From Candidatus Poribacteria bacterium (GTDB taxonomy: Bacteria; Poribacteria; WGA-4E; WGA-3G), in assembly GCA_965205015.1 (NCBI GenBank), contig OZ242029.1, positions 3,680,001-3,744,000 of the forward strand: a stretch of DNA of 64,000 nt, in the 5' to 3' direction. Shown piece by piece: positions 11,223-62,897 of this stretch. The stretch's first letter is position 1, and each line of letters begins with the position of its first letter. The translations under genes and the position numbers were made by a program. The notes under the pieces are model-generated. The model ran no database searches and was not told the origin of the DNA. It saw only the letters and a list, made by a program, of their open reading frames with translations.

Positions 11223-11281
11223 TGTAGCGCAAACTTTTTAGTTTGCGGACACATCTGCACAATCTAACAGATTATGCTACA
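11223..11281. repeat. GTAG-type REP-like hairpin doublet
   Basis: TGTAGCGCAAACT-TTTT-AGTTTGCG ... AATCT-AAC-AGATT-ATGCTACA; a related half occurs at 47525-47549. Confidence 0.55.
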
Positions 11282-40600: not shown

Positions 40601-42112
40601 TTAGAATGTGCTTTCACGATTTGTAATCGGACACCACCGTGCCATGAGCAGGTAATCAAACAGTGCTGACTCTGCTTCTGGGGTGTCGATGCGTTTCAGC
40701 GCCAAGACGGCGTTGTCTCGGACGTACCGGTTTTCGTCGCTAAAGGCGTTTGCGAGCACTGGGACGGCATCGTTTGCAGCGGGTCCAATTTGCGCTAATG
40801 CTAATGCGGCTTCAAATCGCGCCTGCCCATCCTCATCGCTCGCCACCATATCGGTCAGGACAGGTACAGCGGGAGCGGCAATGGGTCCTAAGCCTCCGAA
40901 GGCTTCGGCGAGATAACGACGGACCTCAACGCATTCGTCTTTTGTGCGTTCCATCAATGCGGGGATAGCAGACGCTGCAGGATTTCCAATTTGCGCTAAA
41001 GCGTAGGCGGCTTCAACTCGCACGGCATCTTCGGTATGTTGTAAGGCTTCGCTCAAGGCAGACACAGCGGGTTCACCGACCGCAGCGAGCGCATACGCTG
41101 CCATTCGTCGCATGATTGGGTCTTCCGTACCGAGTGTTTCAATTAGTTGGGACACAGCGGGTTCACCGATCGATCCGAGGGCATACGCGGCGTTCAAACG
41201 GACAGGTTCATACACATCACACAGTGCTTGGATGAGGTGTGGAATTGCTTCTGCACCGGATTCGTCCAACATCCCTAAGTCGTCGGCGGCACGGGAACGG
41301 ACAGTGGCATCGTCATCACCTAATGCAGCGATGTGGTTTGCCAAATCTCCGTTGGCAACCGATTGGGCAGAATTCCCGTTGGACGTGCCTGCCACCCAAT
41401 TCCAGACATGTTTCCACGTTCCTTGATGCGTCGGAGTCGCTGAATCAACATCTCCCAGTTTCCAGTGCGGATCCGTTACGTTCCACTCCGGTTTCTGCGG
41501 TGCGTCCATCCGAATGAACTGGAATTTCATCATGTAGCGGGTCTTGTCGGTCAGATTTGCCATTGCGCGGTGCCAGAGATCGAAGTGAATAATCGTTAGG
41601 GTACCCGCTTCGCCGCTGAGCGCTAATTCACCCTCGTTGTCCTTCGTGATACGCGTATCGTAGTACTGCGTTCCCGGTAAAACTGCTGAGGGTCCGATTT
41701 CGAGCGGCGAGTCTTGGGGATAGTAGAACGCCATTGCCCAGCGGGGACAGTGGTGGCGGACTTTTTGATACCCCCAGTAGCTATCCTTGTGGAATCCTTG
41801 TCCATCGCTGTGAGGGCGGTTCTGATGCGGATGTCGATGGGAATGCATGGCGTAATTCTCGCCCAGAATACTCGTAAACGCGCCACGGACAGTAGGTTCC
41901 TCAAAAACGGCTTGCAATTCGGGGACGCGTGGCAAGATATTATTCCCTAAGTTCCCTTCTTTTGCTGTGAGTTCCTGTGTTTTGCGATAGATCGTTTCGT
42001 GGAAACTGCGCGGCAGATCGGCTTTTACGGTGAGATGTCCGTTCACAATAAATTCTCGCATCTGCGCGTCGGTCAGTTTGTGGCTTTCCTTTAGTTGTGA
42101 ATGCGTTTGCAT
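40601..42112 (-). CDS. phytanoyl-CoA dioxygenase (PhyH)-like domain fused to HEAT repeats
   Basis: HKD...DLWHRA facial-triad pattern, followed by VRxxAAxALG repeats. Confidence 0.85.
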   Translation of the reverse strand: MQTHSQLKESHKLTDAQMREFIVNGHLTVKADLPRSFHETIYRKTQELTAKEGNLGNNILPRVPELQAVFEEPTVRGAFTSILGENYAMHSHRHPHQNRPHSDGQGFHKDSYWGYQKVRHHCPRWAMAFYYPQDSPLEIGPSAVLPGTQYYDTRITKDNEGELALSGEAGTLTIIHFDLWHRAMANLTDKTRYMMKFQFIRMDAPQKPEWNVTDPHWKLGDVDSATPTHQGTWKHVWNWVAGTSNGNSAQSVANGDLANHIAALGDDDATVRSRAADDLGMLDESGAEAIPHLIQALCDVYEPVRLNAAYALGSIGEPAVSQLIETLGTEDPIMRRMAAYALAAVGEPAVSALSEALQHTEDAVRVEAAYALAQIGNPAASAIPALMERTKDECVEVRRYLAEAFGGLGPIAAPAVPVLTDMVASDEDGQARFEAALALAQIGPAANDAVPVLANAFSDENRYVRDNAVLALKRIDTPEAESALFDYLLMARWCPITNRESTF

Positions 42113-42552
42113 GGTCAAACTCCCTTTTAAGGGTTATCAGTTGTTGGGATTCCGAGATCCCTCCTACCAGATATCCAAACGTTCTTAATCTATTTTACGT
42201 GACACGCGTTTATTTGTCATCTATTTTAATTTTTAGGTATCGGTTATCAGTTTTCAATTATCAGTTACAAGATATTTTTGACGGTATCAGAATCCTCCGT
42301 AACCGACGACTGACAACCTGTGTCGGATAGTTTAGAAGGTTGGAATATTGACAGGATGTGGAATGGAAAACTGGAAGAGATACAAGACGCGAGCGAGGTT
42401 GAAAAGGGTCTCCATCTGCCCTTTGAAATGGGAAGGCACAAGGTGGCATCGTGTTCAGCAGTTAGCACGCATCGGTAGGCGATCAGAAGACCCGTTATTC
42501 AATGGAAATCTCTTTAGCTGACAACTGATAACCGAAAACTGACGACTATCAC

Positions 42553-45362
42553 ATTCCCTACGAACGGGAAGGCATATCCAAAGCATGGAATAACCAGGGA
42601 CAGGCTATCCAACAGTACTTGTTTCAATTCCCTACGAACGGGAAGGCATATCCAAAGGCACGAATTACTGATTGACTGTTATGAAAGGAAGTCGTCACGT
42701 TTCAATTCCCTACGAACGGGAAGGCATATCCAAAGGTCACGGCAGGGCTGATGCACTTTCCTACTCTAAACTGGTGTTTCAATTCCCTACGAACGGGAAG
42801 GCATATCCAAAGTTAGCAATCGTAGCAGGTGTATCGACGAAGGATGTTTCAATTCCCTACGAACGGGAAGGCATATCCAAAGTATCTCGTGTATTTTCAG
42901 TAATCCACATAAGCGTAAGTTTCAATTCCCTACGAACGGGAAGGCATATCCAAAGGAAAATGTTGGAGCGCAAGTGGATACCATCAAAAGCCGCATGTTT
43001 CAATTCCCTACGAACGGGAAGGCATATCCAAAGTTATCACGGTTAACGGCGTTGAATACACGATAACGTTTCAATTCCCTACGAACGGGAAGGCATATCC
43101 AAAGCCAAAGATGGCTGAACCGATTACGGACTTTCTAATGTTTCAATTCCCTACGAACGGGAAGGCATATCCAAAGTATCGCTTTTATTGCTAATTCTTC
43201 TTGACTTTCATTGGCAATGTTTCAATTCCCTACGAACGGGAAGGCATATCCAAAGGATCCATGCGAATGAGATCAAGAGCCGACCTCACTTCAAGTTTCA
43301 ATTCCCTACGAACGGGAAGGCATATCCAAAGGGATATCTTTAATGAGCCCGGGATGATCACAAAAGTGTTTCAATTCCCTACGAACGGGAAGGCATATCC
43401 AAAGTCCTAAAGGAGAATTGTAAAATGGCATCAACACCGACCGCGTTTCAATTCCCTACGAACAGGAAGGCATATCCAAAGAGTACAGCCAGCAGTTCTC
43501 TGGCGTCCACTGGTAGAATCGTTTCAATTCCCTACGAACGGGAAAGCATATCCAAAGTCAAAATTGCGGAGACGTGTTGGTGGAAAAAGACAAGTGAGTT
43601 TCAATTCCCTACGAACGGGAAGGCATATCCAAAGTATTACAATCTCAATTATCACAATTATCCTGAAAAGTTTCAATTCCCTACGAACGGGAAGGCATAT
43701 CCAAAGTCTACATAAACGACGGGCATCATGACCCCTATTAGGATGTTTCAATTCCCTACGAACGGGAAGGCATATCCAAAGTCAGTGTCTTGGGAAGATA
43801 TGCAGCATGGCTTTAGCATTGTTTCAATTCCCTACGAACGGGAAGGCATATCCAAAGCTCAGGTCAATGCAGTTTTTCACTCTACGCACGTTGAGATAGT
43901 TTCAATTCCCTACGAACGGGAAGGCATATCCAAAGAATGTTATTGACAACGAAAAAAGACGCTGGCATCATGTTTCAATTCCCTACGAACGGGAAGGCAT
44001 ATCCAAAGCTCTTAATCGTTACGGCGGATGCAAAGAAGCCAGAAGCGTTTCAATTCCCTACGAACGGGAAGGCATATCCAAAGTTGTTGCATTCCTCGCA
44101 GTAACGACCGCAACAGCAAAGAAGCCGTTTCAATTCCCTACGAACGGGAAGGCATATCCAAAGAACACCCGTTTACCCCGCAGCGAAAAAAAGTAAACTT
44201 ACTGTTTCAATTCCCTACGAACGGGAAGGCATATCCAAAGGGTAGTACTCTCTTATCCTTATTAAGAAAGTATACCGTTTCAATTCCCTACGAACGGGAA
44301 GGCATATCCAAAGAAGAGTATAGGAAGATTGAGGAAGAGGTGCGAAAGCAGTTTCAATTCCCTACGAACGGGAAGGCATATCCAAAGACCACACATCCCG
44401 GCTGGGGTCTCGTTTGGCAGTGCCACAGTTTCAATTCCCTACGAACGGGAAGGCATATCCAAAGCAAACCCTGTCCGGCGAAACTGCTCAACATAGAACT
44501 ATGAAGTTTCAATTCCCTACGAACGGGAAGGCATATCCAAAGTGGGCAGAAGAATTGGAAAGCGAACCCAAAGGAAGTTTCAATTCCCTACGAACGGGAA
44601 GGCATATCCAAAGATTAGGTCGTGTTGTCATCAGACTATCTTGGAAACAAGTTTCAATTCCCTACGAACGGGAAGGCATATCCAAAGTTAAAAAATAGAA
44701 GAAACGAGGGTTGCCGCCCTCAAAAGTTTCAATTCCCTACGAACGGGAAGGCATATCCAAAGACTGCGTTGCACCCCACCCTTGTTGTCATAAATTAATG
44801 AGTTTCAATTCCCTACGAACGGGAAGGCATATCCAAAGGCAGTCATTAGGGCTATTGCCACATTTCGAGTTTTCACTTGTTTGTTTCAATTCCCTACGAA
44901 CGGGAAGGCATATCCAAAGGGTGACGGAATAAAGGTCGTCCGGGAGCCCGGACAAAAGTTTCAATTCCCTACGAACGGGAAGGCATATCCAAAGTTAAAG
45001 GGTCTACGGGCATTAATTTTATGGATATCACTATTTGTTTCAATTCCCTACGAACGGGAAGGCATATCCAAAGTCAAAAAGGAGACTCTCATGGCAACCG
45101 CAACCGCGTTTCAATTCCCTACGAACGGGAAGGCATATCCAAAGGCTGAAAGTTCTCAATACCGATATGGAGCGTATCCAGTTTCAATTCCCTACGAACG
45201 GGAAGGCATATCCAAAGCTATAACTGCGATCCAGACCATCTGTTGATGCACCTGTTTCAATTCCCTACGAACGGGAAGGCATATCCAAAGTTTTTTATAA
45301 AAAGGAGAATAATCATGTTATTTGAGTTTCAATTCCCTACGAACGGGAAGGCATATCCAAAG
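42553..45362 (-). CRISPR. CRISPR array: 38 repeats (leftmost degenerate), 37 spacers of 33-44 nt; repeat as transcribed CTTTGGATATGCCTTCCCGTTCGTAGGGAATTGAAAC
   Basis: 37-bp repeat counted by eye, with single-base variants at 43445 and 43521. The degenerate copy on the left, the ATTGAAAC 3' end and a leftward promoter on the right give the minus orientation. Confidence 0.97.
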
Positions 45363-45625
45363 AGACCCCATTTTGCACCCAGTCGGGCCGTGGCTCCGGA
45401 TACCCCAAAACCAAACGCGAACTGCGCAGGGCTTTTTTTGCGCAAAAATTCATCCCTAAAATCCCACAAACCCTTATGAACATTGACCCAAACGCGATTT
45501 TTTAGCAAAATCGGTATGGAAGTCAGTCCACATCTATGTTCTTGGACGAATTAAGCCGTGCTGGAGTCCGAGGGATGAATCGTGTTTGTTTTTATAAGTA
45601 TACACAAAATTCGGAAAAATGTCAA
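45363..45625 (-). promoter_or_regulatory. CRISPR leader with sigma70 promoter
   Basis: Non-coding. Minus-strand TTGACA (45625-45620)-17 nt-TATACT (45602-45597) points into the array. Confidence 0.8.
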
Positions 45626-45672
45626 ATTTTTTGTATTCTTTTTAGGAATTACTAAGATTTTCTGAGTACTCC

Positions 45673-45701
45673 TTGACAAACAGGCTAACATCACTCATAA
45701 T
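45673..45701 (+). promoter_or_regulatory. sigma70 promoter for cas2, divergent from the leader promoter
   Basis: TTGACA-17 nt-CATAAT. Confidence 0.6.
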
Positions 45702-45735
45702 GATGAATATATCAGCGAAATGGAGGGTCAATTCG

Positions 45736-46011
45736 GTGTTCTACGTCATTTCTTACGATATTCCAGACAACCGGCGGCGCAATCAACTCGCCAAAGTCCT
45801 CAAAGGGTTCGGGACGCGAGTCCAATACAGTGTGTTTGAAGCACATCTCAACAGGACACAGTATGAAGAACTCAAACGCGCCGTTGCGCGTGTTATTAAT
45901 GCTTCCGAAGATTCAGTGCGCTACTATGCCCTCTGTGGGGCATGCGCGACGCGGATTGAAGTGCCAGCCCTCGGAGATGTAACCCCGGATCCGCAAACAA
46001 TTGTGGTTTGA
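45736..46011 (+). CDS. cas2: CRISPR-associated endoribonuclease Cas2
   Basis: YVISYDIPDNRRR...GTRVQYSVFE...DSVRYYALC; GTG start after GGAGG. Confidence 0.96.
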   Translation: MFYVISYDIPDNRRRNQLAKVLKGFGTRVQYSVFEAHLNRTQYEELKRAVARVINASEDSVRYYALCGACATRIEVPALGDVTPDPQTIVV

Positions 46012-46012
46012 T

Positions 46013-47425
46013 ATGCGACTCCCTGACCTCACGCTCGACCAAATCCGGCAACGGTGTACAGCACAGAGTTTCACGCGCGGCACGGAATACTTTCACGCCG
46101 GGATGATTGGAAACCCAATCTCTCAGGGTTATACATTGTCGGCAACATGTGAGGGGACAGACATAGATCCGTATCACGTCTCTGTGGAATTGATGCCGAC
46201 TGGAATCGCTACCACCTCTTGTTCGTGTCCTTATGCCGGTGACTCTGGCGGCCACGGGGATTGTAAGCATACCGTTGCGCTTTTGTTGACCTATGTCCAT
46301 ACACCCGATATCATCTCCTCTATCGATACCTTAATGACCATGCTCGCGGAAAAACCGAAGGAAAGTCTTTTACGCATTCTCTCAGAGGTGCTGAAACATG
46401 CACCAGAGGTGGAACCCGTTGTGCGAGTCTACGCCGATAGGTGTGACAAGGAAACGGAGACGACACCTACGGTGCTTCGCGTATATCTCGAACGGATTGA
46501 CTGCATCTTCGGGGACGGTTTTCTGGAACAGCATCAGCTTCGTAACGTCCTCATTCAACTTGAGAGGTTAGTAGAGCAGGCAGCATCGCTTTCAGAAATC
46601 GGAGAAACAGAACTCGCGCTGTCAATTCTTCACGCCTTGATACACCAATCCATCGTCCGTTATCCCGATACACTCCAGAAACAGGAATTACCGAGATTCG
46701 TTAAGAAATGCACAACGACGTTTGCGGAGATTGCTATGGAGGCGCGAGAATTGGATTCGGTAGGCCTCGGCATAGAAGTTCTGCCGGTTCCCTTACGTGA
46801 ACACTATCAGATGTTGTTGGCACTGAGCTTCGAGGCGGCACCCGTCTTCACACCGCTCCTGACACGCCTCCTTCAGCAGTGCTGCACTACGCCAGAATCG
46901 GCAGATTTACAAGCAACAATTGAACAACGGCTCGATGAAAGTCCCGATCGGCAGGCACATGTTCAACTCCTCTTTGCTTTGTCTCTCCAGTCCGGTAGCA
47001 TCGGAGAGTGTCTTCGGCTCGCACGCCGCGAAGGAGAAAATTATCTCCTGATCCATACGCTCTTCACACACCAGCAAGACGCTGCCGCATGGCAGGCACT
47101 CGAAACGCACCCTTTGTCGGTTGATGAACATTGGTGCCTTTTGGAAAGCCCGATTGCCACGCGTATTCCAGGGTTTACTGATAAATTGCTCATGTCCGTC
47201 AGGCATTACGACTCCGACACCGCGATTGCCCTATATCACAGACGCATTGAAAAGACCGTCCTTCCCCGAAAGCAGAAGGATTACAAAAAAACTCGGAACT
47301 ATCTGGCTGATTTACGGGAACTCTATGAGGCGTGTGATCAGGAAAGCCAGTGGACCTCGTACCTGACAACCTTCCGAAAACAGCATGCACGCAAACGCTT
47401 GCTGCTGCAAATAATTGATGTATAG
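46013..47425 (+). CDS. SWIM zinc-finger protein with helical C-terminus
   Basis: SFTRGTEYF...PYHV...SCSCPY...CKHTVALL; ATG 1 nt after the cas2 stop. Confidence 0.85.
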   Translation: MRLPDLTLDQIRQRCTAQSFTRGTEYFHAGMIGNPISQGYTLSATCEGTDIDPYHVSVELMPTGIATTSCSCPYAGDSGGHGDCKHTVALLLTYVHTPDIISSIDTLMTMLAEKPKESLLRILSEVLKHAPEVEPVVRVYADRCDKETETTPTVLRVYLERIDCIFGDGFLEQHQLRNVLIQLERLVEQAASLSEIGETELALSILHALIHQSIVRYPDTLQKQELPRFVKKCTTTFAEIAMEARELDSVGLGIEVLPVPLREHYQMLLALSFEAAPVFTPLLTRLLQQCCTTPESADLQATIEQRLDESPDRQAHVQLLFALSLQSGSIGECLRLARREGENYLLIHTLFTHQQDAAAWQALETHPLSVDEHWCLLESPIATRIPGFTDKLLMSVRHYDSDTAIALYHRRIEKTVLPRKQKDYKKTRNYLADLRELYEACDQESQWTSYLTTFRKQHARKRLLLQIIDV

Positions 47426-47444
47426 CACGCCCCTGGAGCGGAAA

Positions 47445-47613
47445 TCTCCCTTTTTTTAAATTTTTTACTATCCTTTTTATCCCCTGTAGACTCTATACAA
47501 ATGTCCGTCCCTTGGTTATCCACTGCGCAAACTAACAGTTTACGCTACAAGAAGTCTCTTTTTTTAAATTTTTTGCTATCCTTTTTACCCATTGCAGACT
47601 CTATACAAACGTC
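47445..47613. repeat. about 60-bp direct repeat pair (47445-47505, 47555-47613)
   Basis: TTTTTTAAATTTTTT(A/G)CTATCCTTTTTA...AGACTCTATACAAA(T/C)GTC occurs twice. Confidence 0.8.
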
Positions 47614-47849
47614 TGATCACTGTCTAATGAACCACCAACTCCTTTCTCACTTAACCTGCAACAATTCCTAAACCTTAAACGACTCTTCTGTCGAGTTTCA
47701 AATTAAAGGGATCTGTTTTCGTTTGTAGTAGGGCAATTCATTGCCCGTTTTGAACTTGCGAACGTGCGATAAATCGCACGACGACGAATCTTACCCTAAA
47801 AGTCAAAGTAGACGCATCACCAGCACACAGATAAACAGGAGGATTCCGA

Positions 47850-48406
47850 ATGTTCGATTACACACCGAGCCCTTCACTCTCCACACAACTCTGCGAACCT
47901 GAAACACTACATGATGCTTGGCGAAAAGTCCGGAGCAATAAAGGAAACCCCGGCATTGATGGGGTTACGATTCAACAGTTTGAGGTAAACCTGACAAAAC
48001 ATCTCCGTCAGCTCTCACGTGAACTCACTGAAGACCGGTATTATCCGCTTCCTGTTCAGAAGTTCACAATCAAAAAATCAAATGGCACCACCCGTGAGCT
48101 CTCTGTCCTGACGCTGAAAGATCGGATTGTTCAACGCGCCGTTTGTGATCTCATCAAAAAACAGAAATTGTGGACTTCAACACCGGGATTGAATTCCTTG
48201 GACACATCTTTGACAGGGACGGCTGTTACCAACCCGTTCCTGAGTCCCGGTCAAAAAGTTTACAGAATCAGGTCCAACGCGTCCTGAAAAATGGCGCAGC
48301 ACACGTCGTTCATTCTGGACAACATGTGACACAGCACGGAAAAAATATCGCCACGCACCTCAGTGAACGTCTCAAACGCGGAAACAATTCTCGTAGGTTG
48401 GGTTGA
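47850..48406 (+). pseudogene. CRISPR-associated group II intron-like reverse transcriptase with internal deletion
   Basis: RT0-2 (AWRKVRSNKGNPGIDG, YYPLPV, RELSVLTLKDRIVQRAV) joins out of frame at about 48155 to RT7 (KTEIVDFNTGIEFLGHIF). PQG and YxDD motifs are absent. Confidence 0.85.
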
Positions 48407-48640
48407 ACGGGACTGTGAAATACGATCCGTCCTTCAAACACCCAGCAAACACGGGATTCTGTTATAGGTCTTCACGGATGTAGTGAAACCCAACAGCTTA
48501 TACCGCTATATCCGTAGAAGCCTTACCGGAAAAGCGTTGGGTTTCGCTCTGTATTTCTAAAAGGGTAAGTATAGGAACCTAACACCAATAATGTTTAAAA
48601 GTGTAGGTTTCAGTGTTTATCCGCTCAACCCAACCTACGG
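48392..48640. repeat. REP-like composite palindrome between RT and cas1
   Basis: CGTAGGTTGGGTTGA at the left, inverted TCAACCCAACCTACG at the right, internal GAAACCCAAC / GTTGGGTTTC pair. Confidence 0.7.
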
Positions 48641-48718
48641 TGCAGTGTTTTAAATTGACACCTATGGGTTAAACGTGAGCGGAATCCAACGTCTCATTCC
48701 TTACTTAGGAGGTATCAA

Positions 48719-49711
48719 ATGGCAATTCTTTACATCACGCAACAAGGGGCAGTTCTCCACAAATCCGGCAACCGAGTCATTGTGAAAAAGGACCGCGATG
48801 TGCTTCAGGAAATCCCGATCGTCCAACTCGACGAGGTCGTCATTTTCGGGAACGGAAACATCACAACCCCGACAATAGGATACCTACTCCACAAAAACAT
48901 TCCTGTCTCTTTTCTCTCTTCACAAGGGAAATACAAAGGGAAACTTCAACCCCCTTATGCCAAGGACACCCTCATTCGGCAACATCAATACGCCGTTGCT
49001 GCGGATCCGACGCGGTGCCTTGAATTCGCCAAATGTTTCGTCCGAGGCAAACTCACGAACGCTATCCGATTCTCCCGACGGCAACGCTCCCAAAACGCCG
49101 AAGTGAAATCCACTCTGGATGCCGCCCATCAAACTTTGGAAAGACTGGAACGTGCCGAGAATTTAGAATCGCTGCTCGGATACGAAGGCACCGGCACCGC
49201 TGCCCATTACCGGGCATTCCGACAATTCTTGACACACGATTGGGGGTTCACCACGCGACAATTCCGACCGCCACCCGATCCAATTAACGCAATGCTTTCA
49301 CTCGGTTACACGCTCCTGCACAATCACGTCTATACCTTCATCAATGTGGTTGGGTTCGATCCATACTGCGGATACTTCCATCAACCCAGGCACGGACACG
49401 CCGCACTCGCCTCCGATCTCATGGAGGAGTTCCGACAAATCATCGTGGATGGTTATGTGCTTTCGCTCGTCAACAACAATCGTATCAGACCCGACGACTT
49501 TGAGCGAACCACCAAAGGCATCCGTTTTACCAAGGAGGCGTTGGATCGGTTCCTTGTTGGCTACTACGGGCGGATGCAACAGACGTTTCAACATCCAACC
49601 CGCAATGAGAAAACGACCTACCTGCGCTGTATTGAACTCCAGGTCCGGCACTTAGCGCACGTAATCACAGGCAAGGCCCCCACATATAAACCGTTTCTCA
49701 TCCGGACCTAA
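48719..49711 (+). CDS. cas1: CRISPR-associated endonuclease Cas1
   Basis: LYITQQGAVL, LLGYEG, RPPPDPINAMLSLGY, ALASDLMEEFR. Confidence 0.97.
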   Translation: MAILYITQQGAVLHKSGNRVIVKKDRDVLQEIPIVQLDEVVIFGNGNITTPTIGYLLHKNIPVSFLSSQGKYKGKLQPPYAKDTLIRQHQYAVAADPTRCLEFAKCFVRGKLTNAIRFSRRQRSQNAEVKSTLDAAHQTLERLERAENLESLLGYEGTGTAAHYRAFRQFLTHDWGFTTRQFRPPPDPINAMLSLGYTLLHNHVYTFINVVGFDPYCGYFHQPRHGHAALASDLMEEFRQIIVDGYVLSLVNNNRIRPDDFERTTKGIRFTKEALDRFLVGYYGRMQQTFQHPTRNEKTTYLRCIELQVRHLAHVITGKAPTYKPFLIRT

Positions 49712-50100
49712 GGGGCCACTTTGTAGTATAATCTTTAGATTGAGTCTCCTATGAACACGCATAAGAAATAAATCTGAGGAATGGAAGGATGGAAGATAGG
49801 AAGCATGGGGAACACCCTCTCCTTCTTCCACGCTTCCACTCTTCCAACCCATCTGAAACCTAAATATCGCTTGGGATGAGTATAGCCGTCTGGTGGCACT
49901 GGCTGAGAAGTGGAAGCAGTTGGGATGCTCGCACAAATGGTTGGATACACCCCGGAAAAATCGAGTGGCGTGTTTCCTTCGGTGGCACAGGAACAACGCT
50001 CTACGGCGTGAAGATAGGCTTGGAAAAGGCATGCCCGGGGCCCCTCGAAAACGGTACCCCAGAAACGTGTATTCTCCAAATATTTGCAAGGTATCAAATT

Positions 50101-50301
50101 ATGCCTGAATTCATCACTTCCCCAATATTTTTGATAATCGCAGCAATACTCGGCATATTTCTCCTAATCGCTATTATCAAGGGAGCGGTCCGCCTCTTCA
50201 TCTGGCTCGCGATTATTGCTGTGCTCCTTATCGGTCTCGGCATTACCACACAAACCGAGCTGCGCGAGTGGTTCGAGAATCTCCTCAAAAGTATACAGTG
50301 A
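50101..50301 (+). CDS. small two-TM membrane protein
   Basis: 66-aa hydrophobic ORF MPEFITSPIFLIIAAILG... Confidence 0.55.
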   Translation: MPEFITSPIFLIIAAILGIFLLIAIIKGAVRLFIWLAIIAVLLIGLGITTQTELREWFENLLKSIQ

Positions 50302-50340
50302 CGGGCGGTGCGACTCAGCGCGTCGTTCTTCATCCATCTC

Positions 50341-51320
50341 TCAATCCACCTCGCGATCGGATCTGATGCGGTAGTGTCCGTATCCAAACGCAGTGTGATG
50401 CCCGATATGCAGATGTTCACCGAGGCAAATAAACGGCAGAAAAGGTGCCAACTCGCCTTTAAACCGGATGTTACCCATGAATCCGTTCATCGGAACCCTT
50501 GCTTTCGCGCGGTGAGAGTAGCGCCCGCGCTGCAGCCACTGTAAACGGGATGTATGCCTGACGGACTGTGCCGCCTCGATTAAAGCGCGGGCATCTACCT
50601 CTGTATCCAAGTCTTCCTCACAATGAAAATAATTGAGGAAACGGATGCGCCGGAGCAGATTCCGGATGAGGTGTTCAAACGTCATAGTGCGTGCCCAGTG
50701 TCCGTTGATCTTGATACTCGTGAGTGTGAGAAACGCCAATTCAATCTCGTCCGTGACGTGCGGGGCGGCTTGCATCACATCGTCAAGTCGAAGAACGATG
50801 CCGTCATCTGTCAGCATCTCGGTCTCCGCTGTGAAAATTGTCTGAGGTTGATCGCTACCGCGCCCAGGCAGGCTTTCGACGCGAGTGAGTTGACACTGCC
50901 CGCGTTTGTCCTGGAGTCCGATCCTGCGTTTCCCCATCTGATCAAAGGTAAACACCATCCACGGTAACAGATGGATTGCCTCACCGATGAGCGTCAAGTT
51001 GCAAGTGAAGGTATCGCCCGGTGCAAAGTCCGATTTCCCAGTGTGTGGGGGTTCAAGGATAAAGGGGTGTGGTGCATACGTTTGACCTCGGAGCATTGGA
51101 CTCTCGTCTGGGACAGGCGTTTCAAAGCATTTAGAATAGACGCACCGTTCTGGGAACTGGCACCGTTCCTCACATTCCTGTGTAGTGCCGACGCAGGTGA
51201 TGTGGCGCAGGATATACCCGAATCTTCCCCGGAATACGTTGCCTTTGTAGAACGGCATCTTCAGCGGTTCTTGGACGGTGTAAGTGAAGCGGTAACGTGC
51301 AAAGCGAAAGTTTTGAGCAT
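50341..51320 (-). CDS. cas6: CRISPR pre-crRNA endoribonuclease Cas6 (apparent 1-nt frameshift in the first codons)
   Basis: GNVFRGRFG, C-terminal G-loop LHIGHHTAFGYGHY. ATG at 51320 is out of frame with QNFRFARYRFTYTVQEPLKMP. Confidence 0.85.
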
Positions 51321-51327
51321 AGCGTAT

Positions 51328-52425
51328 TCACGCCCAACCGAAGGCAGTGCGGACGTATTGATGAAACCTTTGCTGGAGGTAATACCACATATCTTTTCCC
51401 CAGATTTCTAAAGATGGGCTTGAATGCCCTGTCTCTTCTTTCAATTCGGCTTGGATAAGCTGCTGTGCTTTTCGCGAAGCCCTGCACAACACGATGGCAC
51501 GTGCTTCAATACCGCCAAGTTGCCGCATCCGTAAAATAGCCTCCATCCCTTTTTGCTTCACCAGGGCGTGTTCCCGGGCAAGGGTGCATGAAACGACAAT
51601 GGTTTGGTATCCGAGTACTGCCACTACATCAAGTTCAAACGGTTTTACACTTGCGTCTGGGGCATCAGCTCGCCGGACATATACTTTATGGAAAAGTCTA
51701 TAGTTGTCTCGATCTGAGCACTGTCGAGAGATGTCTGCTAAAGCATGTTGAAAGGCAGCATACGCCCCATACTCAAGCAATTCGGGGCTCGTGAAATATC
51801 CGCTGCGGAGTGCTGCCCTACCCTGAGTCACCTGTTCAGCACTGAGGGTTCCGGGAGCAGGACAATTTCTCGTTCGATTGTTACCCGATTCATCCGAGTA
51901 ATCGTAAGGAAATGGCCCGAGTTCGAAACCGTTGAGTTCGGCAATCCGCCGCAAACATGGCTCGATTCCTTTACGAGTATCTGAGACTAAGGCATTTCCG
52001 TTCCGGTCCATGAGGGTTGCGCCTGCGTCGGCACGTGGATCCAGATAGGAGGTTTCTATATCCATATTTCGTGATAAAACCGAAACCTGAATATTTTCTG
52101 CTGCAGCGACGGTTTCAACGCACATCACCTTCGTACCACCGGTATAATGCACGTGAATGCAAGTGGTATTATCCGGTAGATTGTGTATGAGATTCTGGGT
52201 TATGTCGTCGCGTACGGTAGATGGATTTCCCGACACCGTTTCGACCGTGTCAATAGGGAATGCAGCGCGGCTATATTTCAGGAGTCGGTCTCGTTCGGGG
52301 CTTGTTTCTTTCGTATGCACAAGTCGTACATGGATAGGGTGTCGCAGGTTATATTTCAAATGGTGGAGAGCCACCCAGACAGGTAATGGATTGGTGCCAA
52401 CTGTTAGCATGAGGAGTGTTTCCAT
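51328..52425 (-). CDS. CARF + PD-(D/E)xK nuclease effector (Card1/Can2, DUF1887-like)
   Basis: LTVGTNPLP, VHYTGGTKVM, ELDVVAVLGY...VSCT...QLGG. Confidence 0.8.
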   Translation of the reverse strand: METLLMLTVGTNPLPVWVALHHLKYNLRHPIHVRLVHTKETSPERDRLLKYSRAAFPIDTVETVSGNPSTVRDDITQNLIHNLPDNTTCIHVHYTGGTKVMCVETVAAAENIQVSVLSRNMDIETSYLDPRADAGATLMDRNGNALVSDTRKGIEPCLRRIAELNGFELGPFPYDYSDESGNNRTRNCPAPGTLSAEQVTQGRAALRSGYFTSPELLEYGAYAAFQHALADISRQCSDRDNYRLFHKVYVRRADAPDASVKPFELDVVAVLGYQTIVVSCTLAREHALVKQKGMEAILRMRQLGGIEARAIVLCRASRKAQQLIQAELKEETGHSSPSLEIWGKDMWYYLQQRFHQYVRTAFGWA

Positions 52426-52485
52426 GAGAGCAGTTTCCTCCGTTTTCCTACAAATTTTTGCCTTTGGCTGCAACTGTTGTGCTTG

Positions 52486-52556
52486 TGTTGCGGTATCTTT
52501 AGTGGTTCTTGACGGTATAGGTGAAGCGGTAGTGTACAAAGTGAAAGTCTTGGAGC
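52486..52556 (-). pseudogene. degenerate duplicate of the cas6 5' end
   Basis: Reads LQDFHFVHYRFTYTV-EPLKIP, versus cas6 QNFRFARYRFTYTVQEPLKMP. Confidence 0.75.
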
Positions 52557-52867
52557 CTGATAAAAATCTATAAACCGGATCAATCTAACCTACGCGACAC
52601 CATTTTGTCAGGACGTGGTTTTCGGTCAAAAGCGGACACACCTGTTCTTCGAGCGATGTGTTGGAATCTGCCGCTTCGCAACCGCCTTCTATCAACTTTG
52701 CTGCCGTGAATGTGCCTTGAAACCTTCATTTTTTTAGCATTTCATGTAGTGGAAAAGAGGATTTATGATTGTAATAATCTACCATGTGGTCCCAGTTATC
52801 TTGCCATTCTTGATAAACCGGATGTGACTTATCTTTTAAATCTTTTAAAGCACATGAAGAAAGCAAT

Positions 52868-53491
52868 TCACGGAATTACTCCGTTAATTTTACCTGTGTT
52901 ATCAACAGCAATAACCCTCAGTTTCACCTTTGCTCCAATTACACCAGGATAATAGGGACGTTCAAAGACAAGGACCCCACTCTCATCAATATCCAATTGA
53001 ACCGTTACCTTAAATCCTTCCTTTTTCAGAATCGTTGCGTTGACTCTATCACCGACTTTGACTTTCGGTTTTTCCGGTTCTTTTGGTGGCTGAGGTATTT
53101 GTGTCGAACGCTGTTTCGGTGTTTGCTGCTGTGCTTGTTGAGGACGTTGTTCCTCTACAGCCCGCTCAGGCTCGACGCGATAGTAACGCATCAACCGCAA
53201 ACTCCAACCGAGAATCGTCAGGATTTCACCGGTGTCGTTGACATCATGGAGGTGCGTTTCACAAGCTTCTTGGATATTCCGATAAAACCGCTGCGTCTGA
53301 CGGCTTCGGATGAGGGCGTTTCGTGTATTTGCCAACCGCTGAATGAGGGACATAAGCCGATTTTTCGCCTCACCTTCATCTTTGTGGTGTCTCATGAAAG
53401 CGACCACTTTACCGAGCTCATTCGGATCGGTGCCCCAGTCGACTAAATCAAAGGCGATGTCATGGGCAATTGACCACTGTTTTTTATCCAT
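52868..53491 (-). CDS. CRISPR-linked hypothetical: helical domain, Q/P linker, S1/OB-like tail
   Basis: Last gene of the effector operon; ILGWSLRLMRYY; KVKVGDRVNATIL...GAKVKLRVIAVD. Confidence 0.7.
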   Translation of the reverse strand: MDKKQWSIAHDIAFDLVDWGTDPNELGKVVAFMRHHKDEGEAKNRLMSLIQRLANTRNALIRSRQTQRFYRNIQEACETHLHDVNDTGEILTILGWSLRLMRYYRVEPERAVEEQRPQQAQQQTPKQRSTQIPQPPKEPEKPKVKVGDRVNATILKKEGFKVTVQLDIDESGVLVFERPYYPGVIGAKVKLRVIAVDNTGKINGVIP

Positions 53492-53503
53492 CGAGTACCT
53501 CCA

Positions 53504-54487
53504 TTAGTAAAGCCCAGAGGGGCAGTTGCGATCATTGGGATAGCGAAGGACTTGTGCGAGCTCTGTCAATAAATCCCGCTTGATGAGCGAATTTGCCGCT
53601 TGATTGGTGCATTCGCTCTTCCATACTTCCAATTGCTCACCTGTTCTCGCTGCCTCGGCTTGAACGTTCCAATCCAAGTAGCGATCACGAGTTTGTTCTT
53701 CAACTTGTATTTCATCCATCTGAACATCAATTGAACCGAAACAAATCGGCTTCGCTCCACCGATTTTGAGTTTAAACGGGTGGTCAGGATGATGCCCCAA
53801 TGCAGTAAAAAGTAACCCCCATTCTGACCTTTTCAGATTATCTACTTGGATAACAAAACGAAATTTTGAACCCTTTTTACACGCTTCGACGGGGGTTTCA
53901 CCAGAAGTTACCTCTCCGTGCATGTAAAACTTGCGTCCCGGAATATCCCGCATTCTCCGTTGATAACGCCCTGGTGCATAAAGTTCTGGCACAAATTCTG
54001 TGCCGATTTCTCCTTCAATGTGAGGAGCATCCTGTATCGCGATATTCCCTTGAAATCCCATCGCGCCAAACATTCTGCACGCCACACACAACCTGTTTTT
54101 TTGACGACACTCTGCAAAATCTCTCGGTACTGATCGGCGAATGCGATTGGAAACTTTGCAGACACAACTCTCCGAAATCGCTTCGGCGACACTTCGAATA
54201 GCCCCTTTAAGGGAACTACCGGGAATCACAATATTTCCGCCAGTTCGGACTGCCGTTTTGATGAGTTCTACATTTTGCCCGATGTCTATGATGCCGCTAC
54301 CAATATGGATTGGTGATAGTGCCTCAATTGTTCCATGAATCTGACCTGATATGTGATCCGCGTGATATTGGTCATGTCCGGTTGGATGTTTTTTATCAAT
54401 GCGTTTGGGAAGCGGTATGTATGCAAAAGGCTTTGGTGCGGCTTGCTCTCGATTTCTGCTCTGTTTACTGCGTTGGTATTGTCCCAT
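53504..54487 (-). CDS. cas7: Cas7-group RAMP (Csm5-like)
   Basis: LSPIHIGSG, IPGSSLKGAIRS, CVACRMFG, GRKFY, KIGGAKPICFG. Confidence 0.85.
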   Translation of the reverse strand: MGQYQRSKQSRNREQAAPKPFAYIPLPKRIDKKHPTGHDQYHADHISGQIHGTIEALSPIHIGSGIIDIGQNVELIKTAVRTGGNIVIPGSSLKGAIRSVAEAISESCVCKVSNRIRRSVPRDFAECRQKNRLCVACRMFGAMGFQGNIAIQDAPHIEGEIGTEFVPELYAPGRYQRRMRDIPGRKFYMHGEVTSGETPVEACKKGSKFRFVIQVDNLKRSEWGLLFTALGHHPDHPFKLKIGGAKPICFGSIDVQMDEIQVEEQTRDRYLDWNVQAEAARTGEQLEVWKSECTNQAANSLIKRDLLTELAQVLRYPNDRNCPSGLY

Positions 54488-54499
54488 GTTCCATACTCC

Positions 54500-54985
54500 T
54501 TATCTTTCAACAAATTCCGTATATCGCGTGAATCGGATGGCCTGCGACTTAAGGTCCCTATACTGAATTATCCTAACCTTTGGAAACTTACACCAATCCA
54601 TTGGGTAGTCAAGTTCTCGAGGGATTCGCGTGTCTCGCCAAGGTTTTGTTTCACCACCCCCGAGTAGAAAAACTTTCTGCGGCGCGCTTGTTTCCCATTT
54701 ACCTTGTCCAGTGAATCCTTCTGGCAGGAATCCCTCAGACAGCCAAAGCAACACATAACCATCCGCAGTTTTTTGCCAACGGATCTCGCGTTTTTTATCA
54801 AACAACCTGCCGTGTGTATATTTTTCGATTTTTGCTGCATTTGGAATGCCTTTTTTCCAATCGGTGATTCTATTCGGACGTTGGAGCAGATAGTATGACA
54901 ACTCATTAAATTGTATACTTGTCAATAGTTCATTAAGTGCCGAAACATCAGATACACGTGCTGTTGCAACAATTGCTTTTCCCAC
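54500..54985 (-). CDS. csx19: Csx19-like type III-D subunit
   Basis: GRLFDKKREIRWQK...RFTRY; GTG start after AAGGAG; position between the RAMP genes. Confidence 0.7.
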   Translation of the reverse strand: MGKAIVATARVSDVSALNELLTSIQFNELSYYLLQRPNRITDWKKGIPNAAKIEKYTHGRLFDKKREIRWQKTADGYVLLWLSEGFLPEGFTGQGKWETSAPQKVFLLGGGETKPWRDTRIPRELDYPMDWCKFPKVRIIQYRDLKSQAIRFTRYTEFVER

Positions 54986-54989
54986 TTGG

Positions 54990-55919
54990 TTATTCTCCTT
55001 CGATCCTGTTTCGCCATGAACCGACACATTCACGCCACAGCGCGGTGAGGTCGTCCGATTCCTCAAAAGATAGTGTGGCACCGAGTCCATAGTCATCTGC
55101 TTGGGCCTGAACGTTCGTATTGACAGAATCAGGGTTGGAAAACCCGTAAGCCTCCGCATCCCCCGCATCATTGACAAGTTGCCCAGCTCCGACAACAATA
55201 TTGTTGTCAAATGGAGCAATTTGATTCCCTACCGGACGCAATTGATTATTTTCAACAACCATTGTCGGATAATAAATTGTGACCCGATTGATTTTCATGT
55301 TCACCTGTCCTAAACCGCGGGATTTTGCGAAACCGATACCGATACGCTGCTCGTCAAAATCGCGGATGGCGAGTGCAATAAGTGCCAGTTGTGCAATTGT
55401 AAAGTTTTTTACACGAATTGTCGTCTTAAAAGCACCTGCTGTAATAACCTCAAAATTGAATGGACCGACTGCAACTGAACCGAAGACACGGTCAATGGCA
55501 ACACCATTTCGCTCTTCTCGGCGAATCTCTCCCGGGTTGACAGGATACGCATCCTCAATACGGGCATGTGCTGAGATTTCTGTGCTGCCAAAAATTTGGC
55601 AAACCGTACAGGTCTTTTTGTAGAGTGCAGCCCTGTTTTCTTCCGTCAAATTTCTACATGGTGAGTTCCTTTGCAATGGATCACATGCTGTTACGTTGCC
55701 ACCGACCGTCCGCACAATACGTTCACAATGGGCGCGGATCGCACCTTTCAACGAGGAACCCGGAAGATAAACGCTTCTATCACCTTCATGGTAGGTTTCA
55801 ACGAACTCCATATCTGGCTTGGTCGGGTCTGCCCCTTGGTCGCTTGCTTTGATAAGCAAGGGTCCGACGGGAGAGATCGTTATTTCAATAATGGCTTGGT
55901 TGACCATCCGTTTGTGCAT
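54990..55919 (-). CDS. cas7: Cas7-group RAMP (Csm3-like)
   Basis: YLPGSSLKGAIRAH, RNGVAIDRVFG, IGFAKSRGLG. Confidence 0.9.
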   Translation of the reverse strand: MHKRMVNQAIIEITISPVGPLLIKASDQGADPTKPDMEFVETYHEGDRSVYLPGSSLKGAIRAHCERIVRTVGGNVTACDPLQRNSPCRNLTEENRAALYKKTCTVCQIFGSTEISAHARIEDAYPVNPGEIRREERNGVAIDRVFGSVAVGPFNFEVITAGAFKTTIRVKNFTIAQLALIALAIRDFDEQRIGIGFAKSRGLGQVNMKINRVTIYYPTMVVENNQLRPVGNQIAPFDNNIVVGAGQLVNDAGDAEAYGFSNPDSVNTNVQAQADDYGLGATLSFEESDDLTALWRECVGSWRNRIEGE

Positions 55920-56755: not shown

Positions 56756-57225
56756 TAGTTGTTTCTCCTTTCGTTTGCCAGAAAAACTTGATACCGTGCC
56801 AGGTTGCCCAAGTAAAGCTGCATGAGACGTAAGTGAACTTGTTGAATCCGATCTTTACCCGAATCCGTGGATGGATCTTCACCTATTGATTGGACAATAT
56901 TCTCAGCATCTTCACCTAATGTTTCGATCTCTTTAACTAATGCAACGGCAAAACTTATGTCGCCCCCACCAGTGTCGCTCCACATCCGGTTCGCACCGCT
57001 CCGACCAAGTTGATAACGGATATAGTTCTTGGTAACCTCAATCCCACTTCCGGGTTCTGTTGCCACATTCAAGACATTCCGAAATGGTGAACGTTCGTTT
57101 CGGAGATTATAGCTTTTCGCCAATTCCTGCATCTTTGGAATAAGTATTTCCATCTGCAAACCAATTTCCCGCTCTATTATCAGATTTTTCTGTTTTTCAG
57201 TGGCAACTTGCTCTGTTTGGCTCAT
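56755..57225 (-). CDS. cas11: Cas11 small subunit (Csm2-like)
   Basis: Small helical protein with NYIRYQLGR...W and LYLGNLAR; operon position. Confidence 0.7.
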   Translation of the reverse strand: MSQTEQVATEKQKNLIIEREIGLQMEILIPKMQELAKSYNLRNERSPFRNVLNVATEPGSGIEVTKNYIRYQLGRSGANRMWSDTGGGDISFAVALVKEIETLGEDAENIVQSIGEDPSTDSGKDRIQQVHLRLMQLYLGNLARYQVFLANERRNN

Positions 57226-61647: not shown

Positions 61648-61711
61648 ACGCCTCCTCCACTTTTCATTCATCCATCATGACGTGAAAGTTCCCGCTTTGT
61701 ATACTTTGAAC

Positions 61712-62854: not shown

Positions 62855-62897
62855 TAAATATTCCTATATTTACTATATCATTGCTTATTTTCGTCGG

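Follow-up and report, generated by a model that had tools for sequence, protein, structure and literature searches.

A conserved SWIM zinc-finger gene in the type III adaptation cluster of Candidatus Poribacteria, and its possible role as a non-catalytic adaptor

Genes and features of the locus

The CRISPR system described here belongs to a sponge symbiont, Candidatus Poribacteria, and is a type III locus lying within a 64,000-nt stretch of DNA, hereafter the window (Table 1). Its effector genes are of type III-D according to PADLOC, with matches to Cas10 (E 6e-68), Cas5_IIId (Csx10; E 3e-100), Csm2 (III-D; E 2e-28) and Csx21 (E 2.5e-39) and several to Csm3/Cas7_IIId. A preliminary description of this DNA had placed cas2, a SWIM zinc-finger gene and cas1 on the plus strand, and Pfam matches to all three bear this out. 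The Cas2 and Cas1 domains are full length, covering PF09827 profile positions 2–73 of 74 (TIGR01573, 61 bits against a cut-off of 24.5) and PF01867 profile positions 1–280 of 283 (TIGR00287, 299 bits against a cut-off of 71.7), respectively, and cas1 is 80–92% identical to its orthologs in related loci. The GTG at 45736 that opens cas2 is preceded by GGAGGG and aligns with the MFYVISYDIP/VFYVISYDIP starts of Cas2 homologs; longer ORFs are possible from TTG 45673 or ATG 45700. As the preliminary description had it, the SWIM gene of about 470 codons begins 1 nt past the cas2 stop (TGA 46009–46011, ATG 46013; junction TGA-T-ATG), at the start that its homologs choose (MQLP...). Judging from the sequence, SWIM probably shares a transcript with cas2, and its translation is probably coupled to that of cas2. 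In most related loci, cas6 is found directly 5' of cas2 on the same strand.

Table 1. Features of the type III locus, in window coordinates.
Feature	Position	Strand	Description and evidence
CRISPR array	42547-45362	- (probable)	38 copies of a 37-nt repeat; start-to-start spacing 70-80 nt
Intergenic region with divergent promoter-like sites	45363-45735		Consensus scan
cas2	45736-46011	+	91 aa from GTG 45736; Pfam CRISPR_Cas2 (PF09827) E 7e-24; NCBIfam TIGR01573 E 1e-16
SWIM / alpha-solenoid gene	46013-47425	+	470 aa; Pfam SWIM, invariant C/C/C/H columns, models, ZSWIM8 match, dN/dS
Tandem ~60-nt non-coding element	47447-47613	+	Copies 47447-47505 and 47555-47613, 88% alike
Reverse-transcriptase pseudogene	47850-48383	+	Two fragments in different frames: N-terminal, ~102 codons (47850-48155), and C-terminal, ~76 codons (48156-48383)
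MITE-like insertion	48392-48639		248 nt, 19-nt terminal inverted repeats; between RT remnant and cas1
cas1	48719-49711	+	330 aa, intact; Pfam Cas_Cas1 (PF01867) E 7e-92; TIGR00287 E 4e-89
cas6	50341-51258	-	Pfam CRISPR_Cas6 E 2e-16; PADLOC Cas6 E 3e-83; synteny
Type III-D effector and signalling genes	51328-63830	-	Csx1-like CARF-PDDEXK, Csx21, Csm3-like RAMPs, Csm2, Csx10/Cas5-IIId, Cas10, CARF-DUF2103/RelE, CARF-HEPN

The array is probably transcribed from the minus strand, as suggested by the reverse complement of the repeat, which ends in ATTGAAAC, by the degenerate left-end repeat (copy at 42544–42601), and by a minus-strand promoter-like site, TTGACA-17-TATACT (45625–45597), that points into the array from the putative leader side. 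The repeat-end criterion is the convention for the 8-nt crRNA tag. A second, plus-strand site (TTGACA-17-CATAAT, 45673–45701), sigma-70-like with 11/12 matches, lies just 5' of cas2; the consensus scan gave 8 promoter-like sites against 4.8 ± 2.5 in shuffles, which makes it weak evidence. The earlier proposal that one promoter serves the whole cluster is doubtful, given the 424-nt gap with a conserved element of about 60 nt between SWIM and the RT remnant. This element has the invariant cores CT(A/C)TCCTTTT and GACTCTATA, and in relatives it is located 53–455 nt upstream of RT, being present in 22 of the 27 RT-bearing loci.

What had been described as an RT/cas1 pair retains an intact cas1, but its RT is a deletion pseudogene lacking the YADD region. 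Window positions 47820–48156 correspond to 2529–2868 of a related locus with an intact RT (L001), and 48156–48383 to 3715–3942; approximately 847 nt are gone, with a frameshift, equivalent to codons ~115–397 of the intact 473-aa RT, in which YADD occupies residues 362–365. A Pfam search of both RT fragments of the window found no RVT_1 palm with YxDD, and the intact L001 ortholog has the features of a CRISPR-associated RT (RVT_1, E 8e-33), with PADLOC matches to "RT" (CAS; E 6.5e-98) and to the RT part of the fused "Cas1_IIIb" (E 9e-61). The deletion junction is spanned with 0 differences by two contigs from public runs that may be from the source samples (X1, 47721–49800; X3, 47786–49188). 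The MITE-like insertion is missing from L001, and its termini show many joints and loose ends in four public runs. The RT pseudogene, this insertion and multicopy repeats within the cluster could be taken to mean that the adaptation module of the window is decaying and that SWIM is a leftover with no current role. We consider this highly improbable in view of SWIM, cas2 and cas1, which are full length and 89–95% identical to L001, the near-perfect copies of the 38-repeat array, and the selection on the SWIM family described below.

Architecture of the SWIM protein and selection on it

The protein consists of a SWIM module (residues ~1–100) and helical repeats (~153–470), joined by a linker modelled with low confidence (model residues 114–156 from the TTG start, that is, ~110–152 from the ATG). 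The SWIM domain PF04434 is matched by residues 58–98 of the TTG-started ORF (E 1.3e-4; 21.8 bits against a gathering cut-off of 19.6), and the zinc ligands C70, C72, C84 and H86 (CxCxnCxH) are invariant in alignments of 31, 19 and 26 sequences. The model of the N-terminal domain (pLDDT 89) has the SWIM fold and matches ZSWIM8 only: superposition on residues 108–230 of 9rwz_M by VIA-align gave Z 12.4 and an rmsd of 3.8 over 112 residues with 24% identity, Foldseek gave E 3e-7, and the next structure, Shu2 (6dex_B), reached Z 4.0. Beyond this domain, the models show an alpha-solenoid, or helical repeat; the whole-protein match to ZSWIM8 is weak (TM 0.2), and the helical repeats resemble many unrelated proteins. 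Searches of Pfam and NCBIfam, together with model and structure comparison, found no nuclease or other catalytic domain, which leaves the proposed prespacer-processing role of the preliminary description with no basis and makes a catalytic part for SWIM in that step unlikely. Among 23 CRISPR-linked copies, dN/dS is 0.19 in the N-terminal part and 0.27 in the C-terminal part; the CRISPR-linked family is under purifying selection.

Linkage in Candidatus Poribacteria and in distant homologs

Of the 41 closest loci, all from Candidatus Poribacteria, 27 carry cas2 directly 5' of SWIM, and 19 of the 25 loci with a called cas2 have a tight junction between the two genes (−7 to +4 nt by tblastn coordinates); in one locus (L041), Cas2 and SWIM domains share a single 282-aa ORF. 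Among 34 sampled genomes with this cas1 ortholog, 23 place SWIM no more than 10 kb from it, and 2 others carry SWIM on a separate contig. The ~470-aa poribacterial form occurs in cas context in these 27 loci, and the 13 loci without cas2 all hold truncated derivatives of 179–335 aa. Eleven of these 13 contain a truncated paralog (312–335 aa) amid housekeeping genes; ten of the eleven end at the identical site, with a dN/dS of 0.28 over those ten. This constraint outside cas loci indicates that the N-terminal two thirds of the protein, at least, work without adjacent cas genes. In a tree rooted with group C, all 11 group B rows and 4 group A rows form a 15-row clade (support 100/100), such that the standalone forms of Poribacteria fall within the CRISPR-linked clade, for which cas context appears to be the ancestral state. 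A single ancestral event followed by vertical inheritance may underlie the linkage in Poribacteria. Five assessable genomes of the 34 keep cas6-cas2-(array)-RT-cas1 without SWIM, and one of the five (L084) still has 19 residues of the SWIM C-terminus; the gene is thus dispensable.

Distant SWIM homologs share about 23–57% identity between groups. A species-genome scan returned 36 distant loci, mostly from Acidobacteria and Chloroflexota, of which 6, all from Acidobacteria, are type III loci and 30 have SWIM away from cas genes; in metagenomes, type III genes accompany SWIM in 13 of 80 loci, the other 67, many on short contigs, having no cas genes next to it. On these counts, the ~470-aa poribacterial form is mostly confined to CRISPR-cas loci, as expected of a Cas protein in the strict sense, and the wider family is not. 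None of the distant type III loci has RT fused to Cas1. For example, one genome locus reads cas6-CARF-DUF3024-SWIM-cas1-x-RT-cas2 (L070), another Cmr2-6, SAVED, SWIM, Cas_NE0113, a cas1 fragment and cas2 (L044), and two metagenome loci read Csx16-(SAVED-TM or CARF-TM)-SWIM-Cas_NE0113-RT-Cas1-Cas2 (L098, L120). Taken with the counts in the closest set, this recurrence upholds the view that SWIM is a conserved member of the adaptation cluster and not a chance neighbour. The preliminary description had named close homologs lying mostly outside CRISPR loci, or related cas2-RT-cas1 loci lacking the gene, as observations that would refute it, and both apply in part: the 13 loci without cas2 (11 of them with truncated paralogs) stand beside the 27 with it, and the 5 genomes without SWIM beside the 23 with SWIM near cas1.

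The loci away from cas genes bear on the idea that SWIM is a self-sufficient defence gene, or some other gene, merely lodged in CRISPR loci and defence islands, with kinship to PDC-S62 and no functional tie to Cas. PDC-S62 (PDLC05053, a 566-position profile) is a PADLOC single-gene candidate for phage defence that is not Cas-linked, and it is similar in length to the long SWIM forms (556–583 aa). All five SWIM proteins tested match it (E 1.6e-9 to 3.9e-20), including that of the window (E 2.7e-12, profile positions 9–133) and that of L070 (E 3.9e-20, positions 8–173); distant homologs also sit beside PD-Lambda-5, HEC-05, PDC-M05, Lamassu-like, AEP/PrimPol, or IS200 / PRiA4_ORF3 genes, and purifying selection acts on the truncated paralog although it has no cas neighbours. 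However, the PDC-S62 alignments are confined to positions within about 3–173, the N-terminal third, no effector domain was found in the SWIM protein, and a mere lodger would not be expected to show a 1-nt junction with cas2, a position between cas2 and RT-cas1, or conservation over many species. The nesting of standalone poribacterial forms within the CRISPR-linked clade also argues against this reading, which we judge unlikely.

A different emphasis comes from Acidobacteria, in which SWIM adjoins CARF/SAVED signalling genes as often as cas1/cas2. In at least 8 loci (Acidobacteria and metagenomes), SWIM directly follows Csx16 and CARF-TM/SAVED-TM and precedes Cas_NE0113, and some of these (L043, L046, L049) are without nearby adaptation genes. 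SWIM could therefore be a type III accessory for regulation or signalling rather than acquisition: it might partner cyclic-oligoadenylate (CARF/SAVED) effectors, or might regulate the expression of cas/RT-cas1 by binding DNA or protein, possibly via the strongly conserved ~60-nt element just 3' of SWIM. SWIM fingers were reportedly first predicted by Makarova, Aravind and Koonin in 2002 to bind DNA or proteins, which counts in favour of such a regulator. Against it, loci that lack SWIM (L084, L085, L086, L088) carry the ~60-nt element too, Pfam and NCBIfam revealed no helix-turn-helix or other DNA-binding domain beyond the zinc module, and the poribacterial SWIM is coupled to cas2, with the CARF genes on the opposite strand. 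Moreover, the SWIM domain of ZSWIM8 is structural and not DNA-binding (PMC13083262). On balance, regulation or signalling in place of acquisition seems rather improbable.

Proposed role and comparison with known systems

Adaptation modules of type III systems that contain RT-Cas1/Cas2 or Cas6-RT-Cas1 take spacers from RNA, as the module of Marinomonas mediterranea MMB-1 is said to do in work by Silas et al. from 2016, and RT-CRISPR clades have reportedly been described by Toro and co-workers. The poribacterial cluster resembles RT-Cas1/Cas2 modules in having a group-II-intron-like RT beside cas1 and cas2 in a type III locus, with cas6 adjacent in most relatives. It differs in that RT, Cas1 and Cas6 are unfused, the order is cas6-cas2-SWIM-RT-cas1, the conserved SWIM gene is an extra component, and the RT of the window is a deletion pseudogene.

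We favour the reading, at a probability of about 0.45, that SWIM is a CRISPR-associated adaptor, non-catalytic, that probably takes part in spacer acquisition or controls it. The poribacterial gene belongs to the type III adaptation cluster (cas6-cas2-SWIM-RT-cas1), and its product has a ZSWIM8-like zinc-binding module followed by an alpha-helical solenoid that could offer a large binding surface; its most likely role would be that of an accessory or scaffold subunit that binds a partner, protein or nucleic acid, while spacers are acquired. Such a subunit may keep Cas6, RT and Cas1-Cas2, unfused here, in one assembly, or may tie them to the leader or the effector. It would be helpful rather than essential, since some lineages have lost SWIM yet keep RT-cas1, and independent of RT, since SWIM persists intact and under constraint even in loci with a deleted RT, such as that of the window.

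The likeness to ZSWIM8 lies in the SWIM-module fold and the helical repeat region that follows; the bacterial protein is half as large as ZSWIM8, and prokaryotes are not known to have cullin ligases. ZSWIM8 (PDB 9rwz) is described as the substrate receptor of a CUL3 ubiquitin ligase, with the BC-box, CUL3-box and dimerising D-domain of such cullin-RING receptors, that recognises AGO2-miRNA-trigger complexes; its SWIM domain organises the protein, and the downstream helical domain binds the AGO2-RNA substrate, thereby sensing an RNA-guided effector complex (PMC13083262). By analogy, SWIM could be the prokaryotic counterpart of ZSWIM8, a sensor and adaptor of the state of an RNA-guided complex that couples interference or signalling to spacer acquisition from RNA. 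The state sensed might, for example, be that of a target-bound type III effector, or of an RT/Cas1-Cas2 integrase loaded with RNA or cDNA. This extension, which we hold to be quite unlikely, would account for the position of SWIM between CARF/SAVED genes and RT-Cas1-Cas2 in two phyla.

SWIM domains have been noted near related machinery before. Type XIII retrons have SWIM accessory genes and likewise place a SWIM-domain protein recurrently beside a bacterial defence RT; the RT class differs, and the likeness is that of the SWIM finger (PMC13712802). The preliminary description had called the protein undescribed, which needs qualification: in the part available, a figure legend of Altae-Tran et al. 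(2023, Science; PMC10910872) lists "SWIM: Zinc Finger domain" as linked to Cas adaptation genes, with no description or function given there. The example gene (1675 nt, ~558 aa) is close in length to the long forms reported here and is a candidate member of the same family, although its contig is not among our 80 metagenome loci with SWIM homologs.

RT-linked type III adaptation is under development for molecular recording and is, to our knowledge, the only route by which RNA sequences are recorded into DNA in cells. An additional, conserved subunit whose binding surface is large could set what is captured, or could govern the assembly of unfused RT, Cas6 and Cas1-Cas2. The occurrence of a SWIM module and a helical domain near RNA-guided machinery suggests, by analogy with ZSWIM8, that this pairing may predate eukaryotes. 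Should SWIM prove unrelated to CRISPR function, it would still represent a widespread, constrained family that is enriched near defence genes; if it is indeed an adaptation subunit, reconstituting these systems away from their uncultivated hosts would require it.

Organization of the type III-D locus and loss of its reverse transcriptase

The window holds a type III-D CRISPR-Cas locus, whose features are collected in the table below. The array is probably transcribed on the minus strand, since the reverse complement of its repeat ends in ATTGAAAC and its leftmost repeat is degenerate. The minus-strand gene set comprises cas6, a Csx1-like CARF-PDDEXK gene, Csx21, Csm3-like RAMPs, Csm2, Csx10/Cas5-IIId, Cas10, CARF-DUF2103/RelE and CARF-HEPN; three distinct CARF effectors (at 51328-52539, 61715-62854 and 62901-63830, respectively) accompany Csx21 in one type III-D locus. 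An Rfam search of positions 42000-51000 on both strands (E up to 0.1) gave no match. Elsewhere in the window lies a type I restriction-modification locus (730-11262).

Features of the type III-D locus and of the type I restriction-modification locus
Feature	Position	Strand	Details
HsdR	730-2130		C-terminal part only
AAA_21/AbiEii-like ATPase gene	4025-5266		inside type I locus
DDE transposase	6825-7964		interrupts type I locus
HsdS	8275-8907		fragment
HsdM	9637-11262		
CRISPR array	42547-45362	probably -	38 repeats; 37-nt repeat
Intergenic region, array to cas2			373 nt; holds two divergent promoter-like sites
Promoter-like site toward array	45625-45597		TTGACA-17-TATACT; consensus match only
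Promoter-like site toward cas2	45673-45701		TTGACA-17-CATAAT; consensus match only
cas2	45736-46011	+	intact; Pfam E 7e-24
SWIM gene	46013-47425	+	intact, 470 codons; Pfam SWIM 21.8 bits, cut-off 19.6
~60-nt non-coding element, tandem pair	47447-47505 and 47555-47613		also e.g. L021:11606-11663 and L084:7144-7211 (related loci)
MITE-like element	48392-48639		248 nt; 19-nt terminal inverted repeats; inserted between RT remnant and cas1
cas1	48719-49711	+	intact; Pfam E 7e-92
cas6 and effector/signalling genes	50341-63830	-	

The RT that the preliminary description placed beside cas1 is a pseudogene: approximately 847 nt (codons ~115-397) are deleted, the frame is shifted, and YADD is gone. In the nearest relative, a locus from a Candidatus Poribacteria MAG (L001) with ~90% DNA identity to the window across the cluster, the RT is intact at 473 aa (RVT_1, E 8e-33; PADLOC CAS-associated RT, E 6.5e-98; group-II-intron-RT-like TIGR04416, 273 bits, under the cut-off of 300). 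Window positions 47820-48156 align with L001 2529-2868 and 48156-48383 with L001 3715-3942, and the YADD of the L001 RT (residues 362-365) falls inside the segment absent from the window. An assembly artefact was rejected as the cause of the deletion, as contigs of two public sequencing runs (X1 and X3) span the junction with 0 differences, although the two runs sample a single study and could themselves be the source of the assembly. In a run from another study (X4), the contig of a relative departs from the window at precisely 48155, the point where an intact RT should diverge.

Several non-coding elements lie around the RT remnant. In four public runs, numerous joints and loose ends fall at the termini of the 248-nt element, which thus behaves like a MITE and is multicopy in these communities. 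A repeat of ~70 nt (47715-47790) is covered 10-50 times as deeply as its flanks in each of the four public runs examined, and several copies occur in four related loci (L027, L030, L032, L036), where they are intergenic within cas clusters (in the cas6/cas2 gap or before cas1). The ~60-nt element, with the invariant cores CT[A/C]TCCTTTT ... GACTCTATA, is found 53-455 nt upstream of the RT in 22/27 RT-bearing loci, SWIM-less loci included, and upstream of cas1 in a locus that has lost its RT (L082); it is tandemly duplicated in the window, L001 and L004. It may serve an RT-cas1 unit as promoter or operator, or else belong to an RNA.

Linkage of the SWIM gene to cas genes in Poribacteria

As initially described, the SWIM gene begins 1 nt after the cas2 stop (TGA, 46009-46011) and has about 470 codons, given that its ATG is the start common to homologs. 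Scanning genomes at species level gave 274 relatives. Of the 80 best loci, which were retained, the 41 closest (48-89% identity) all carry the label Poribacteria, apart from one MAG labelled Gammaproteobacteria. The usual order among these 41 is cas6-cas2-SWIM-RT-cas1 on one strand. The proposed cas neighbourhood was borne out in most of them, with cas2 directly upstream in 27 and a cas2 fragment in one more, but 13 lack cas2. The N-terminal part of the RT is present in 20/41 and cas1 in 21/41, several absences reflecting short contigs. Where a cas2 was called (25 loci), the cas2/SWIM junction is tight in 19 and spans 148-608 nt in the other six. One otherwise decayed locus (L041:9596-10441) carries a single 282-aa ORF with both a Cas2 domain (45-117) and a SWIM finger (190-226), and a remnant of the same type lies broken into pieces in L052.

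Linkage was also examined from the side of Cas1. Of 150 genomes sampled evenly across the phylum, 34 encode a full-length Cas1 of at least 81% identity; the SWIM gene lies within 10 kb of Cas1 on the same contig in 23 of these and on another contig in two. The remaining nine have no SWIM match, four of them with contigs ending nearby, so that related loci lacking the gene do exist: in five assessable genomes (six loci), cas6-cas2 is followed by an array or other DNA and then RT-cas1, except that the RT is missing in both loci of one genome (G041; L082 and L083). One SWIM-less locus (L084) retains a 19-residue remnant of the SWIM C-terminus, indicating that the gene was lost there. A further genome (G071:C90:6939-9604) has the SWIM gene 261 nt from cas1, too little space for an RT, so that SWIM has been retained there without an RT, as it has in the window. 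On this linkage evidence, we consider with high confidence that SWIM is a CRISPR-associated gene in Poribacteria.

Among the 13 loci without cas2, 11 carry a short SWIM form of 312-335 aa (L007, L011, L014, L017, L020, L023, L024, L028, L031, L033 and L034; match from ~10001, or from 5450 in L024), which lacks the C-terminal ~140 residues. Ten of the 11 stop at one site (...SE[EG]E[EG] or ...SEEAG), and L024 stops earlier. The short form resides outside cas loci, with housekeeping genes around it in three distinct settings; in L033, fragments of cas6 and cas1 lie beside it. Purifying selection acts on both forms: median dN/dS is 0.19 and 0.27 in the two parts of the long one and 0.28 in the short one, taken over the ten loci. 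NCBIfam has no family for either the SWIM protein or its short paralog. Such a constrained standalone gene would suit an independent lodger or defence gene, an explanation of the family that we retain as a less probable rival to a role in adaptation. A maximum-likelihood tree with distant homologs as the root places the short forms within the poribacterial CRISPR-linked clade, in one group (support 100/100) with four CRISPR-linked genes of loosened cas context (L009, L010, L016, L019). From this nesting, the cas-linked state looks ancestral and the standalone form derived.

Distant homologs, protein architecture and possible function

SWIM also recurs as a type III neighbour outside Poribacteria. 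Homologs from other phyla (~23-29% identity in whole-protein alignment; 30-47% over the best N-terminal segment) include a long form of 556-638 aa, with added TPR-like repeats and the same C-terminal domain, and a short form of ~324-341 aa. Among the best 80 of the 274 relatives, 6 of 36 distant genome loci have a type III context, all in Acidobacteria: SWIM follows Cmr genes and CARF, SAVED or Csx16 genes in L043, L044 and L064, follows Csx16 and SAVED-TM or CARF-TM in L046 and L049, and stands in the order cas6-CARF-DUF3024-SWIM-cas1-x-RT-cas2 in L070. A metagenome scan (80 loci of 354 relatives, many short) found type III genes in 13/80 loci, two of which (L098, L120) share the order Csx16-(SAVED-TM or CARF-TM)-SWIM-Cas_NE0113-RT-Cas1-Cas2. 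The arrangement of type III effectors, Csx16, CARF-TM or SAVED-TM, SWIM, Cas_NE0113, unfused RT, Cas1 and Cas2 is repeated in L098, L120, L044 and L090. A Pfam STIV_B116-like gene sits immediately upstream in L043 and L046, and PADLOC also calls the L046 copy Csx16. The remaining distant loci lie near other defence genes, IS200/PRiA4_ORF3 genes or housekeeping genes. All five SWIM proteins tested in PADLOC match the N-terminal part of PDC-S62, a single-gene phage-defence candidate, within positions 3-173 of 566. Two pattern matches came from a scan of IMG/VR viral contigs with the SWIM alignment, neither confirmed as a relative. The absence of an SNF2 helicase was upheld for the window, and an SNF2 partner was therefore rejected; among the distant loci, L046 does have an SNF2-like gene ~4 kb off.

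The model of the full SWIM protein (mean pLDDT 78) has three regions. A compact N-domain, made of two helices, a four-stranded sheet, a zinc knuckle and one further helix, is joined by a linker of low confidence (model residues 114-156, counting from a TTG four codons before the ATG) to a C-terminal solenoid of ~18 helices. Modelled alone (pLDDT 89), the N-domain matches only ZSWIM8, the substrate receptor of a CUL3 ubiquitin ligase, with a VIA-align Z of 12.4 (rmsd 3.8 over 112 residues at 24% identity) and a Foldseek E of 3e-7; Shu2, another SWIM protein, comes second at Z 4.0. ZSWIM8 also ranks first in a whole-protein Foldseek search (E 6e-6), yet with a TM of 0.2, and the helical part resembles many unrelated repeat proteins. 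The predicted succession of a SWIM module and a helical part is like that of ZSWIM8, in which a dimeric superdomain is organised by the SWIM domain, and a helical domain further along the chain binds the AGO2-miRNA-trigger complex (PMC13083262). Residues 389-474 resemble the Ku80 C-terminal domain (Z 8.4, rmsd 2.1, 86 residues) and two homologs have precomputed PF08785 labels, both too weak to build on. A co-fold of two Cas2 copies with SWIM scored 0.01 against a mark of 0.32, in a run without controls, and so counts neither for nor against binding.

Pfam, NCBIfam and fold searches found no catalytic domain in the SWIM protein. Because no nuclease domain was among the results, a nuclease or prespacer-trimming role was rejected, and with it the suggestion of a prespacer-processing factor; the predicted build of the protein points to a binding or scaffold protein rather than an enzyme. 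The coupling of SWIM to cas2 and its location within cas6-cas2-SWIM-RT-cas1 speak for a part in spacer acquisition or in the control of it. Cas6, RT and Cas1-Cas2 parts are fused in other lineages, and SWIM could plausibly scaffold them where they are unfused. The adaptation reading is held at a probability of about 0.45 on account of the losses, the persistence of SWIM with a dead or absent RT (in the window, and in G071, where it abuts cas1), the constrained short form, and the signalling genes that neighbour it in Acidobacteria. Those neighbours would fit a regulatory or signalling accessory, a rival reading that we retain at the same lower probability as the lodger or defence gene.

Relation to earlier reports

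The entry "SWIM: Zinc Finger domain" appears in Altae-Tran et al. (2023), where a figure legend covers a panel of new adaptation-module associations, and their supplement includes a "(SWIM).gb" example of 1675 nt, without discussion in the available portion of the text. Their gene may belong to the same family as the window gene; the supplement contig is not among the 80 loci returned of the 354 metagenome relatives. Literature on SWIM with CRISPR, type III, Cas1, RT, CARF or Poribacteria yielded no account of the gene beyond that legend and supplement entry. Type XIII retrons have also been noted to carry SWIM accessory genes (PMC13712802). In light of these reports, the SWIM gene is a CRISPR accessory gene, a known category rather than a new one, which is better documented here. 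New in the present analysis are its conserved operon position and coupling to cas2, its phylogenetic spread and losses, the derived standalone paralog, the predicted ZSWIM8-like architecture of its product, and the finding that the RT of the window is a pseudogene.
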